Positions 6,900-14,029 of a stretch of DNA of 64,000 nt are shown piece by piece. The position numbers were made by a program, and so were the translations under genes. The notes beneath the pieces were generated by a model. That model ran no database searches. It was not told the origin of the DNA and was given only the letters and a program-made list of their open reading frames with translations. Each line of letters starts with the position of its first letter. The first letter of the stretch is position 1. The DNA lies in contig OZ024740.1 of NCBI GenBank assembly GCA_964016885.1, positions 278,876,001 to 278,940,000 of the forward strand. The letters run 5' to 3'. The stretch comes from Eledone cirrhosa. Taxonomy: Eukaryota.

Positions 6900-6973
6900 A
6901 CATATAATATACATACATACATACATACATACATACATACATACATACATACATACATACATACATACATACA

Positions 6974-7145
6974 TGGTGGCTGCCAACTCGTTTTCGAGTA
7001 CGGCCACTACTTTATATCCATGTAGGAGAACCCCTACCGATGCGCTGAACGAGTGTGACTTTTTAGTCCAGCCAGCGACTTGAAAACTCTGGTACAAACA
7101 CTACACTTGTGACAATTATTGACATATAGTGCTGGGCCCATGGTA
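6974..7145 (-). mobile_element. RTE-type LINE 3' end embedded in (TACA)n
   Basis: C2H2 terminus CSVCTRVFKSLAGLKSHTRSAHR*, short UTR and (ATGT)n tail; nearly identical to 12585-12760. Confidence 0.8.
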
Positions 7146-7229
7146 CATACATACATACATACATACATACATACATACATACATACATACATACATACAT
7201 ACATACATACATACATACATACATACATA

Positions 7230-10200
7230 CAGTTGTAGAATTAAAAACTAACTGAGAGGAAATATTACCCAAGCTGTGAATAACTTTAGATTTAATTTTG
7301 ACAAAACTTTGTCGAAACTTTTAAAGAAGATCATCGTCTATTTTGAAAAAATAAATGCAAAATATTAGTGAATAGACTAACTCATCATGGCAAAATCTAT
7401 AAGTCTCCTCCGACCAAATCGCAACTACAACCATCGTATACAAAGGAGCAAAGATTTATATGAAGCATACAAGCAATCTGACCCCCAAAAGTTCAGTTTT
7501 GTGAAGAGGCTAAAAACTTTGTGGAATTCCAAAATCCCAGAATTAAACTTTTCCCAAAAACATTTAAATGAACAGACAAAACGTACCATTATAAAGACAG
7601 CCATTGAAGACAATCATCCCACTTCCACTGTCAGACAGAAAGAATGGTCACCTAAATCTGGCAGAAAACAGCTCACCAACAACGTAGCTGAACTCCATCC
7701 CGCTTCCCCTGATGAACAGAGAGAATGGTCAGCTAAATCTAGCAGTAAACAGCACACCAACAACCTAGCTGAAATCCATAACTCTACTGTACAAACAGAA
7801 CCCCAAAAACTTGAGGACACATTACAAGTGATATGGGAGGATATGTTTCAAGAGATACACAGTCTTAATGTGAGTAACAGACCATACAACACCAGAATCA
7901 GTAAAGAACCCACTAAATTGGAATTGGAAACAGTGAACGAAATAACTGACAATTATCTGAAGGCCACACGGTTCAAACGTGTGGAAATGACATATGAAAT
8001 GCTTAATATTTTGTTAGATGTTTCAACTATCACATTGCTATCTTATCATAAACATCTAAAACCAAGCAACCAATACAATAAGAAAGCCTGAACCAGCGTG
8101 GATGAGTAATTTAAAAAACAAAATCTTGGCCCTGTGACAAAGTATCTCAGATCACTGTAGTTATAAAATGCAACATAGAGAGCAACTTCACACGACATCA
8201 GGAAGACATAAGAAAAAAACCTAGAGAGGCGATTTGGGGATACAAGATTTACAACTCTAAACTCCCAACTACATCAGCTGAAACAACAACTCACAGCCGC
8301 AGCAGATAGATTAAAATATAAGTCAACAGCACATAAACGGCAAATGCTAAATAGATTATTTGCTAGAGATCCTAAATCAGTTTATCGCAGCTTCAATAGG
8401 AACAGCTCAATCTCTGTAAATGACATCCCTACAAAAGAACAGGTGGAGATCTGTATGGGAAACGAATGATGGATTTAACAAACAATCTAAATGGCTAAAA
8501 GAACTGGAACAGTAATGCTAGCAGCATATCCAGATAAAACAATATGACATAGATGGGTCAATACTGGAAACAGCTCTACAGAAAATTTCGAAGAGGAAAT
8601 CACCAGGCCCAGACCTCATAACAGGATACAGGCTGAAGAATTTCACCTTCTATCAGCAAGATCTCATACGGCTGTTTACAGAAACCATCAAAGACATACA
8701 AGAACTGCCCCAATGGTTATCAACTGCTACTACCCTCCTCATCCCAAAAATTACCGCCCAATAGCCTGCCAGAACATCGTGTATAAATTATACACTGGGT
8801 GCCTTAATCTGTTCTTACAGAATCATTGTGCCACCAACAACATTATAACACCTGAGCAAGCTGGCAAAACGAAGGAGGTCTGGGGCTGCATAGATCACCT
8901 ACTAACAAATAAAATGATACAGGAAAGGACAGCAAAGGACAGCAGGAACATGACTGTGGTGTGGCTGGACTATAAGAAGGCTTTTGATAGTGTACCTTAT
9001 GGGTGGATTATTAAGGCTTTACAGTTAGCCAAAGTCCCACAACCACTAGTAGCTGCTGTTGAACGCCTGACCAAGAACTGGTACACAAGTTTGGTCCTGA
9101 GGGGTGAGAAGTAGAAAATTACGGCTGATACAATACACTACCAGAAAGGTATCTTTCAGGGTGCATCTTTCAGGCTTATCAGTGCTGCTCTTAGTCCTCT
9201 CACTAAACCCACTATCATACCTGCTTACAAAACAAAGTGGTCATGGAAGTGGGTCCAGAAGTATCTCCCATCTTTTATTTGTTGATGACCTGGGTCAAAT
9301 ACCAACTATATTTTTAAAAAACAATTGGATGACCTGAAGTTGTATGAGCCAAATCTCAACTACATTAAAAAACAATTGGACCTCATTACACAATTTTCTG
9401 CAGACATCAGAATGAAATTTGGTGAGTCCAAATGTGCATATTTGACAGTAAAACGTGGAAGGGTTGTGCTCTCCTCTGGAAATCTAGAGATGAACGACTT
9501 GACAATACAACCTCTATAGTCAGGTGACAACTGTAGATATCTTCGACAGGATGAGAATGTCAGATATGATGGACCCATAAATAAGGAGAGAGCCAGAACT
9601 GAATACCTCAGGAGAGTAAAGAAAATATGGTCATCAGAACTATCATCGTACAACAAGTACATTGCCCACAATACTTATTATGTGCCAATCCTAAAGCCAA
9701 CATTTGGTCTGCTGAAGTTATCATTGCAAGAACTAAGTGAGATGGATGTAAGAACTCGCAAGCTTCTCAATGTTACTCAGTGATGTGGATAGGTTATACT
9801 TCTCACGCAAGGAAGGTGGCCGGGGTCTAAAGTCCTTATTAACATCATACGAGATCAGGATAGTAACACTGAAGCAACATCTTCAACAGAAGAAAAAGGT
9901 GAGCATGGAAGAAATAATTGTTTCTACTTTTGGCTCAAGGCCAGCAATTACCCAGTACATTACTGGTACTTTATTTTATCGACCCCGTAAGGATGAAAGG
10001 CAAAGTTAACCTCAGCGGGATTTGAACTCAGACTGAAGGAAATAATATCATTAGGATAGTCACTGATCTGGAGGAGAGATATGGAATAAGGCCTGATATA
10101 AATCTCTCTCTCCCAGGGAAATTGGAAGATCCTATTCAATGTTCAAACAAGATAAAAATAAATGGACCAATTTACAGAGAAAGTTCTGCATGGGTACCTG

Positions 10201-11960: not shown

Positions 11961-12357
11961 CCGTAACCCAACGGTTTATTTTAAAATATCCAATACTAAC
12001 TTACCTAATAGTATAATTAAAGATATAACTCCACTATCCGGGAGCTTCCAACAGTAATGGTTGCATTCTTTAAGGGTATGTCAATATTTATTTATAAAAC
12101 TGCTCTATATTATATTTTATCTGATGAAAGCACACCATAATTTAACTTGGTGGCCTTGAAATATGTATAATGAAATAAATATGGTTTTATAAATATAGTT
12201 TCCATTTGATAATATCGTATATATGTATGTATATGTGTGTATATACATCACTCAGTCAAACGACCAGATTTCAACTCCAACATCTACAACAACAACACCG
12301 GCACTAATGTTTACAGCAACAACAGCTTCAGAATGAATTGAAATGAACATTTACATG

Positions 12358-12585
12358 TATATACATACATACATACATACACACACACACACACACACAC
12401 ACACACACACACACACACACACACACACACACACACACACACACACACACACACACACACACACACACACACACACACACACACACACACACACACATAC
12501 ATACATACATACATACATACATACATACATACATACATACATACATACATACATACATACATACATACATACATACATACATACA
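12358..12585. repeat. compound (TACA)n(CA)n(TACA)n microsatellite
   Basis: Read directly from sequence. Confidence 0.95.
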
Positions 12586-13147
12586 TGGTGGCTGCCACAA
12601 CTCGTTTTCGAGTCCGGTCACTACTTTATATCCATGTAGGAGAACCCCTACCGATGCGCTGAACGAGTGTGACTTTTTAGTCCAGCCAGCGACTTGAAAA
12701 CTCTGGTACAAACACTACACTTGTGACAATTATTGACACACAGTGCTGGGCCCATGGTACCATGTGACGACAAGTGCAGAGAGATCTCCAGATATAAAGC
12801 AATGCCTGTGCCGTGAAGCTTTTATAGTGAGCAAAGGCACTGCACAAAGCCAGTCCCACTCTCTTAACCAAGATGATATTTACCAAAAAGAAGAACAAGT
12901 CAACATCATTGGATACCATCAGGGTTGCAGGTGTTATATCAGAGTTTTCCTTCTCTTAGAATTCTGCCTTGACAAAGGCTAAGGGGTCATCTCTCCCGGT
13001 GATTTTGGATGGCCATTGACTCTTACGAGCTCCTTTGCCCTTTGACAGGTTTTGTTTTTAATCCTGCAGGATGTCCAAAGTCACCCTCCTCACCAAGAAA
13101 CCTTGGTGGGGTTGCCAGTTTAGTCGCCAACGACCCGACCATGAGAC
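12585..13147 (-). mobile_element. internally deleted (bipartite) RTE derivative between (TACA)n tracts
   Basis: Same 3' end as 6974-7145. The upstream part carries an RTE-like 5' region (AGAGAAGGAAAACTCTG; GHPAGLKTKPVKG) and has no RT. Confidence 0.6.
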
Positions 13148-14029
13148 ATATATACATACATACATACATACATACATACATACATACATACATACATACA
13201 TACATACATACATACATACATACATACATACATACAGTATCAAATTATTCAAGCATAATCAAAGTAATTATTAACATTTAAATAAAGAGATAGTCAGATC
13301 AGACCAAGTAAACAAAATTGCTGATACAACTCCTGGTAAAAGGAACAACGTGATATGATGGCTGCAGCTTAATAACATGTCTTCCCCAAAAATAGTGGTT
13401 AGTGCATGTTGGTGATTCGTTTAACGAGAAATAGGGATGGAGACCAGCAGTTGGTTTTTTTTTCCATGGTCAGTAGAAAGCTGTTATTTGTACAAATATA
13501 TCATGTAAAGACAATTTTATAGAAACAAGAAATAAAGTTTTTTATCAAGAACACTATGTTTCGCCTGGTCCAATAATCGAACCCACGACTCTATTATCAT
13601 TAAGCAACACTAAGCCACCTGCCTTAACTCAAGTGAATGTACGCGCGCGCATAAATATGTATGTACCCGCCCGCAAAAGGGGATCCCATCATTTACTAAG
13701 TCAATTTTTTTATCTAAGGGAAATAACTCTTGTAAACTAGATCTAATCAATTGTTTCCAGGGAAATAACTCTTATGTTCTTTGCTCCTGTTTATTCGGCT
13801 GTAGAAATGAGTTGCGGAGTCACTGGTGCCAAGCTGTATCGGCCATAGCCTTTCCCTTGGATATCATCGATGGTGTGGAGAGGGGAGGCTGGTATTCATG
13901 GGCGACTACTGGTCTTCGACAAACAATCTTACCCGGACTTGTGTCTCGGAGGGGAACTTTCTAGGTTCAAATACCATGGTCAAACGTGACCGAAGGAGAG
14001 TCTTCTCTATTAGATACAATATGATGGTG

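Follow-up and report, generated by a model that had tools for sequence, protein, structure and literature searches.

Several families of long interspersed nuclear element (LINE) have been established as microsatellite-specific: Dong inserts into (TAA)n, Waldo into ACAY, Mino into AC, Kibi into TC and Koshi into TTC repeats (PMC3812793), (TG)n repeats are the target of Togen, and certain HERO families are likewise microsatellite-specific (PMC4640811). The Dong target is described as (TAA)n in most insects, molluscs and cnidarians, and a diverged N-terminal Myb/SANT-like domain, with no zinc fingers, has been reported for R4/Dong from HHpred comparisons (PMC7998251). Elements of the RTE clade are characterised by an extremely short 3' untranslated region (UTR) that ends in simple-sequence repeats (PMC2887409), and the octopus element RTE-2_OV is described as a protein of 1109 aa with endonuclease, reverse transcriptase (RT) and a C2H2 finger, with a microsatellite running from the end of its open reading frame (ORF) (PMC9115989). 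Dong-R4 and RTE LINEs are both reported to be abundant and recently active in octopus genomes, and the portions of that literature examined (PMC13282606, PMC8967140, PMC9115989) make no mention of microsatellite targeting by Dong-R4. Here we describe a nest of retroelements and (ACAT)n arrays in 64,000 nucleotides of the Eledone cirrhosa genome (assembly GCA_964016885.1, contig OZ024740.1, positions 278,876,001 to 278,940,000), together with copies of the same elements elsewhere in the assembly. This stretch is referred to as the window, and element positions are given in its coordinates.

Three elements make up the nest: A and B, two LINE families with a restriction-like endonuclease (RLE), and S, a non-autonomous element of 608 nt. 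Our principal conclusion is that A and B likely integrate into (ACAT)n, and that (AT)n or (ATGT)n arrays are the likely integration sites of S, which derives from a LINE with an apurinic/apyrimidinic endonuclease (APE) and lies in the opposite orientation. The elements were mapped with BLAST, the references being natural copies found elsewhere in this genome, that of B partial (1792 nt).

Repeat flanks of families A and B

Junctions were read at the best-scoring 30 of the 40 scored matches from each search of the 3.0-Gb assembly. Under our strict test, a junction was positive if an uninterrupted, error-free ACAT repeat of 12 nt or more, on the sense strand, lay within 30 nt of it; the window's own copy was excluded. 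The set of truncated A 5' ends omits four loci at which the alignment breaks internally and gives no junction (L005, L009, L014 and L028), the B 3' set omits one of 29 loci that has no identifiable end, and the B 5' set omits the reference locus and three loci that extend past the start of the reference.

The repeat was found at both ends of both families. For A, 19/29 3' ends, 17/25 truncated 5' ends and 17/22 full-length 5' ends were positive, the five misses in the last group being impure ACAT-type runs. For B, the test was passed by 20 of the 28 3' ends and 18 of the 25 truncated 5' ends. The same test was positive at 0.2% of 20,000 random positions drawn from twenty arbitrary 10-kb stretches. 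All 12 full-length A copies with both ends identified have ACAT-type sequence at each, the shortest being 9 nt and the longest over 60 nt, and one full-length B starts immediately 3' of (CATA)27. The flanks of A are also strongly directional, with a sense repeat in 56 of 82 and an antisense repeat in one.

Phase and position add to this picture. The 5' junction of full-length A falls between ..CATACA and ATGG in 12 of 24 cases, and the tails of both A and B restart in ACAT phase, while truncated copies of either family meet the repeat at many different internal break positions. Since the repeat stands at the 5' ends of full-length and randomly truncated copies alike, it appears to be a target and not only a tail. 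Three loci (L013, L022 and L072) have a long 5' array, yet on the 3' side the repeat gives way to unique DNA after 4-10 nt, as would be expected of a nick near the edge of an array. Taken together, repeat flanks on both sides, in one orientation and throughout the genome, make it likely that A and B integrate into the microsatellite by target-primed reverse transcription. This agrees with the original prediction, made from the window alone, that the nest contains two RLE families specific for (TACA)n: elsewhere in the genome the flanks are far from random (66-77% of junctions positive across the five sets, against 0.2%), and the repeat is found at 5' ends as well as 3' ends, random truncation points included.

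An Rfam scan of full-length A, B and S loci and of the window found no 5' ribozyme and no tRNA or 7SL head. Matches to the miRNA models mir-297, mir-1277 and mir-3149 (at L063, L069, L098 and L129) fell below the gathering score and were rejected as artefacts of the ATGT-strand microsatellite.

Layout of the nest and classes of element

Five tetranucleotide arrays, identified with Tandem Repeats Finder (TRF) and by reading the sequence, lie within 6909-13236. The features of this interval are as follows.

6909-6974, no strand: (ATAC)16.5 array, 100% matches in TRF, on the 3'-tail side of the minus-strand S copy 1
6975-7143, minus strand: S copy 1, the last ~170 nt of S (S 437-608 against 7146-6975, 99.4%, BLAST)
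6975-7143, minus strand: content of S copy 1, a remnant of the C2H2-finger ORF and the 59-nt 3' UTR
7144-7231, no strand: (TACA)22 array, between the 5' ends of S copy 1 and A
7232-11019, plus strand: element A (A 473-3147 against 7229-9900, 81.7%; A 3183-4172 against 10040-11018, 87.5%, BLAST)
7387-7600 (approximate), plus strand: candidate N-terminal three-helix (Myb/SANT-like) remnant of A, from alignment, an AlphaFold2 (AF2) model and VIA-align
8740-9330 (approximate, in several frames), plus strand: RT remnant of A, from the ORF list and RVT_1 in family copies
10372-10680, plus strand: CCHC and restriction-like endonuclease remnant of A (CRLC..C, RPD, VVEIS), from the ORF list and the R2 profile alignment
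11020-11066, no strand: (ACAT)11.8 array, at once the 3' flank of A and the 5' flank of B
11067-11491, plus strand: element B fragment (B 1140-1567 against 11063-11491, 91.1%, BLAST)
12363-12585, no strand: (ACAT)n(AC)n(ACAT)n array of composite structure, adjoining S copy 2 on its 3'-tail side
12586-13145, minus strand: S copy 2 (S 49-608 against 13148-12587, 97.2%, BLAST), with a C2H2 ORF remnant at 12651-12821
13146-13236, no strand: (ACAT)22.8 array, adjoining S copy 2 at its 5' end

All but one of the eight element ends in this interval adjoin an (ACAT)n-type repeat, and the layout that had been described for 6900-13240 is thereby upheld. The exception is the 3' side of B: the fragment stops ~225 nt short of the end of the family's 3' UTR, which is why no repeat adjoins it there; at its other end it is truncated inside the RLE region. 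Outside 6500-13700 the window contains only three short ACAT arrays, 44 nt in total, and BLAST found no further copy of A, B or S in the rest of the 64 kb. Across 200 kb sampled arbitrarily from the genome, 0.29% of the sequence consists of ACAT arrays 12 nt or longer. The concentration of arrays and elements in the nest is thus not a matter of chance.

Element A corresponds to what had been described as a 3.8-kb LINE. It is indeed present on the plus strand, but it is a copy that lacks the first 473 nt of the family and is interrupted at 9901-10039 by a foreign insert of 139 bp that other A copies do not have. Numerous stops and frameshifts interrupt the ORF of this copy. The insert unit also occurs on its own at several fetched loci, with short matches to A around 2670-2803, and it appears to resemble a cephalopod SINE (short interspersed element). 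Within the A ORF, an 81-bp unit stands twice at 7615-7779 (TRF), and other copies show extra matches to A 384-467; given its place in the predicted disordered linker (residues 86-158), this is probably an internal repeat of variable number.

Full-length A measures ~4.2 kb, starting 473 nt upstream of the 5' end of the window copy and ending in a fixed A/G-rich motif. A first look at the genome gave 1504 candidates for its last 120 nt and 720 for its first 169 nt, and 3285 for a 200-nt piece of B. The single ORF of A, ~1150 aa long, comprises an N-terminal three-helix domain, a disordered linker, RT, CCHC and a PD-(D/E)xK endonuclease. Pfam detected RVT_1 and zf-RVT in open pieces of A; it detected no APE (Exo_endo_phos) in the 557-aa N-terminal piece of one genome copy or in six full-length relatives, nor, even at E <= 10, in the 28 members of the A profile. 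The best solved relatives of A are R2 proteins (phmmer against PDB). A protein search returned 58 relatives at E <= 1e-5 within a length band of 999-2850 aa, 27 of which are 40-59% identical and 1036-1220 aa long, none of them annotated with a family name. The A-lineage profile was built from these 27 together with P0001, an open stretch of 570 aa taken from a copy of A. It aligns with R2 at E 1.5e-52 over profile positions 375-1145, beginning where the RT begins and reaching the protein's end, and the alignment spans the CCHC (CRxC..C) and the PD, (E/D)V and K of the restriction-like endonuclease. The B protein is 51% identical to A over 467 aa, and the true 3' end of B lies ~200 nt beyond its stop codon. 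Judged by these alignments, A and B are RLE-type (R2-superfamily) non-long-terminal-repeat retrotransposons and form sister families.

Element S has one fixed start position when full-length, and it is oriented opposite to A and B relative to the repeat strand. All 40 scored genome copies of a 169-nt piece are 99-100% identical. A genome search with the 57-aa ORF remnant yielded 45,991 first-look candidates, of which the 150 scored are identical short copies. The 'RTE 3' end' and 'RTE derivative' that had been predicted as separate pieces are in fact two copies of S.

An ORF scan of all fetched loci located a parent for S. At L166 (G000:C3:61804800-61810800), an ORF of 451 aa leads from the RT active-site region through the conserved LINE C-terminal region to three C2H2 fingers, after which come the 59-nt 3' UTR and terminus that S also has, with a repeat following. 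Within the parent's 3' segment of 1412 nt, the terminal 169 nt align to 7146-6978 of the window at 97%. On the opposite strand, L166 also carries sequence with 58% identity to the stretch of the relative P0192 that spans APE and linker. A search with the parent gave 250 relatives at E <= 1e-10; the 120 listed are mostly ~1000-1200 aa long (807-1228), most have Exo_endo_phos and RVT_1, and about 50 of them, chiefly the closest matches, also have C2H2 fingers. For P0192-P0194, Pfam reports Exo_endo_phos and RVT_1, with C2H2 also in P0192 and P0194. An intact single-ORF parent was not seen among the loci fetched from this genome. As far as sequence comparison goes, S is a non-autonomous LINE derivative, sharing its 3' end with an autonomous LINE and too short to encode an RT, and its parent is an APE-type LINE whose endonuclease class is unrelated to that of A and B. 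The parent may be called RTE-like on the strength of its architecture and of the published octopus RTE description.

The flanks of S differ from those of A in admitting a second repeat. At 29 loci, the 3' flank is (ATGT)n in 10, (AT)n in 11 and neither by the strict test in 8; the corresponding 5' counts are 10, 7 and 12. S does belong, through its APE-type parent, to a different endonuclease class from A and B, as the original prediction has it; it is not specific for (ATGT)n. The repeat type of the two flanks agrees in 9 of 10 classed pairs, and tails begin with AT in 28/30. As the flanks match each other, the S 'tail' looks largely target-derived.

Several further observations concern S and its parent. 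Within L166 255-2946, the RT/C2H2 3' part lies on the minus strand and the APE/RT-start part directly behind it on the plus strand, the pattern expected from 5' inversion during insertion, and the parent's 3' end there faces the 3' end of a B copy with 8 nt (ATGT) between them. Diverged relatives of S (67-82% over parts) adjoin ACAT arrays at L017, L018, L027, L098 and other loci, suggesting a guild larger than the three families studied. Beside one S copy, L165 1500-4400 (G000:C1:210936000-210943000) is a ~3-kb imperfect CA/TA-rich higher-order repeat with long spurious ORFs. Two leads to the parent were discarded: a 175-aa frame from the genome search with the S peptide proved to be read-through into microsatellite, and a HMMER search of 1.84 billion representatives with the 57-aa peptide gave only generic C2H2 proteins, the six checked being without RT (Pfam).

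The window has further features besides these elements. Immediately left of the first array, a unit of ~340 bp at 6560-6905 looks by eye like another minus-strand short interspersed element; ARAGORN found no tRNA in 6400-13700, this unit included. A (CT)70 array lies at 11822-11961, between the B fragment and S copy 2, in AT-rich sequence (11492-12362) that gave no BLAST match to the reference elements. Farther along, a 48-bp unit forms a tandem array at 21272-22212 (19.6 copies, 94% matches, TRF).

Shared arrays, proposed mechanism and alternatives

Many arrays serve more than one element. Neighbours were annotated within 250 nt against A, the partial B and S. Upstream of 28 A 5' ends stood the 3' end of a B in seven, the 3' end of another A in four, a minus-strand S in seven, other elements in two and none in eight. 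Downstream of 29 A tails there was the 3' end of a minus-strand S, tail-to-tail, in seven, a truncated B in three, other guild pieces in four and none in 15, and downstream of 28 B tails the corresponding minus-strand S 3' end in five, a truncated A or B in three and none in 20. For an unselected sample, all perfect (ACAT)10 arrays along the initial 6.73 Mb of contig 1 were taken (22 rows): 15/22 lie within 20 nt of A, B, S or the parent, all in the expected orientation, and the remaining seven have no neighbour from our small element library. In the window itself, S copy 1 (99-100% identical to its family) sits inside (TACA)n beside a much older A (82-87% to the reference copy). Being far younger than A and placed inside the array at the A 5' end, it indicates that the array predated S. 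The self-reinforcing landing pad envisaged in the original prediction is compatible with the neighbour counts, although they do not establish the order of events.

These observations lead us to propose a mechanism for the shared use of (ACAT)n. The A/B protein would nick the ATGT strand of an array, at a site that junction phase places at the TpA step, and the freed 3' end would pair with A/B RNA ending in (ACAU) and prime cDNA synthesis; the 5' junction would then form in the remaining array. Sequence recognition would be supplied by the N-terminal Myb/SANT-like domain of A and B. The APE of the S parent would nick the other strand after ..AT, which would explain how (AT)n serves equally well, and S-type RNA ending in ..CCACC-AU could pair with (AT)n and (ACAT)n alike. 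With repeat left on either side of every insertion, arrays would stay usable and collect head-to-tail and tail-to-tail chains. In its most complete form, this proposal has RLE (A, B) and APE (S and its parent) lineages working on opposite strands of one TpA step, with the repeat regenerated on both sides, the RLE protein reading (ACAT)n through its Myb-like domain, and the whole acting as a self-propagating system behind most long (ACAT)n arrays of the 3-Gb genome. We advance that combination tentatively, as a possible but somewhat doubtful account.

The first 87 aa of A are predicted to form three helices (AF2 model; mean predicted local distance difference test score, pLDDT, 86.9). A VIA-align scan with this model ranked the Zeste DNA-binding domain first (Z 6.0, rmsd 2.5, 64 aligned), followed among others by ISWI (5.7), GT-1 (5.4), TRF1 (5.4) and the DMAP1 SANT domain (5.3). 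Sixteen of the 50 rows are titled Myb, SANT or TRF, and all rows have a Z below the tool's caution level of 8. The GT-1, ISWI, DMAP1, LUX, ARR1, PHR2 and Reb1 rows have the same fold as Myb/SANT. No CCHH pattern was seen on reading the N-terminal sequence by eye. Foldseek with the whole 557-aa N-terminal model returned only matches to the RT and N-terminal extension (LINE-1 ORF2p and R2), and is silent on the small domain. The modelled domain agrees with the Myb/SANT-like domain reported for R4/Dong, short of proof.

How far the repeat itself could be a by-product of insertion has to be weighed against this proposal. Were (ACAT)n a templated 3' tail of A, B and S, the repeats at 5' ends would reflect passive pile-up in regions that tolerate insertion, much as Drosophila Waldo-A/B have been suggested to gather passively beside CA repeats (PMC3812793); 11/28 arrays upstream of A are indeed tails of another A/B copy, and 7/28 adjoin S. 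The remaining evidence makes this very improbable. Behind eight of the 28 upstream arrays no element was recognised, truncated copies meet the repeat at many internal positions while the junction phase of full-length copies is fixed, orientation to the repeat strand is 56:1, the three copies with a long 5' array have almost no 3' repeat, and the 3' repeat type of S follows the 5' type. We give as little credence to the idea that insertion took place at a short ACAT motif with target-site duplication, both copies being lengthened later by replication slippage. Slippage is the published explanation for RTE tails in Lepidoptera (PMC2887409), and in some copies the repeat at one end does measure no more than 9-12 nt. 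Nonetheless, very young S (99-100%) already has arrays of 66 and 88 nt on its two sides in the window, the two arrays of one copy are often very unequal in length, and upstream arrays are frequently common to an older neighbouring element.

A further alternative keeps insertion into arrays and changes the source of specificity: nicking would be loose, at TA steps in AT-rich DNA, and (ACAT)n would be chosen by pairing of the repeat-ending RNA, with no domain that reads sequence. S behaves as annealing through a terminal AU would predict, occurring in both (AT)n and (ATGT)n with tails that begin with AT, the tails of A and B always restart in one phase, and no significant match marks the N-terminal domain as a specific DNA reader. 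Set against this, A flanks are ACAT and not (AT)n, even though (AT)n is ~20 times commoner at random positions (4.9% vs 0.2%). A and B have also kept a conserved N-terminal three-helix domain, well folded in the AF2 model, whose best structural rows are DNA-binding Myb/SANT domains, and in the solved R2 complexes it is the protein that reads the target. On balance we consider purely RNA-guided choice rather unlikely.

Several points weigh against our principal conclusion and the mechanism inferred with it. By the strict test, between 23 and 34% of junctions have no perfect 12-nt repeat, many being impure or shorter, and some have no repeat of any kind (L003, L007 and L029 at the 5' end, L013 at the 3' end). 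The loci are best-scoring matches, and so are biased toward young copies and do not amount to a census. Insertion into a pre-existing array is deduced from flanks, no empty site having been recovered. An intact ORF was found in 0/14 full-length A copies, the longest open piece being 587 aa, and any current activity of A is therefore hypothetical. The Myb/SANT assignment draws on middling structural scores (VIA Z <= 6.0), with no Foldseek match at E <= 0.001 and no Myb/SANT Pfam match in the 28 profile members at E <= 10. Finally, the identity of the first-nicked strand, and protein reading as opposed to RNA-DNA pairing as the source of specificity, are proposals.

Significance and comparison with known systems

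Site-specific RLE LINEs are a model for how a mobile element chooses its landing site, and reviews describe the present use of R2 relatives for gene insertion. The A lineage would represent a shift from the published (TAA)n and ribosomal DNA (rDNA) targets to (ACAT)n with the small N-terminal domain, as modelled by AF2, retained, and may thus offer a natural test of target rewriting. The presence of the unrelated, APE-type S in the same arrays and in the opposite orientation points to the microsatellite as a niche for several lineages of mobile element. More generally, our results suggest that a large share of one microsatellite class in a genome can be tied to retroelements, which matters for repeat annotation, marker design and assembly.

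Microsatellite-specific LINEs as such are already known, and what appears to be new is the combination of an RLE element with an (ACAT)n target. A full-text search of one literature collection, which takes in neither Repbase entries nor all journals, found no RLE element reported with this target. The prediction of a possibly undescribed target sequence is accordingly supported in part: ACAY is already the target of a LINE, the APE-type Waldo (PMC3812793), and it is the pairing of RLE with (ACAT)n that we did not find in print.

Dong of the R4/Dong clade is among the known systems closest to A and B. Like them, Dong is described as having a single ORF with RT and a C-terminal RLE, and it inserts into a microsatellite (PMC7998251, PMC3812793); an N-terminal zinc finger is absent from Dong, and no CCHH pattern was evident in A. 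This is a likeness of features rather than one drawn from an RT tree. Dong proper differs in its target, (TAA)n (PMC7998251), where the flanks of A and B are (ACAT)n. Togen, which is NeSL-related, and the microsatellite-specific HERO families are likewise RLE LINEs with such targets (PMC4640811), although the repeat differs from that of A and B and the clades probably do too. Waldo, of the R1 clade, resembles A and B as a site-specific LINE whose ACAY target includes ACAT, but it is an insect element of the APE type, while A and B have an RLE and no APE (PMC3812793). The R2 proteins (9nl3, 9dou, 9nl2 and 8gh6) are the closest solved relatives of A, with an alignment that takes in RT, CCHC and the complete RLE. 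They differ in that R2 targets 28S rDNA and A is flanked by (ACAT)n. The N-terminus of R2 carries zinc fingers and a Myb domain.

The S parent may have its counterpart in the RTE clade. Its 59-nt 3' UTR followed by (ATGT)n or (AT)n is what the description of that clade would lead one to expect (PMC2887409), and it shares with RTE-2_OV an RT and terminal C2H2 fingers, three in the S parent, the APE being present in the parent's relatives (PMC9115989). The difference lies in the origin of the repeat: in the published accounts of RTE it is a product of the element (PMC2887409, PMC9115989), whereas the matching repeats on both flanks of S point to insertion into arrays.

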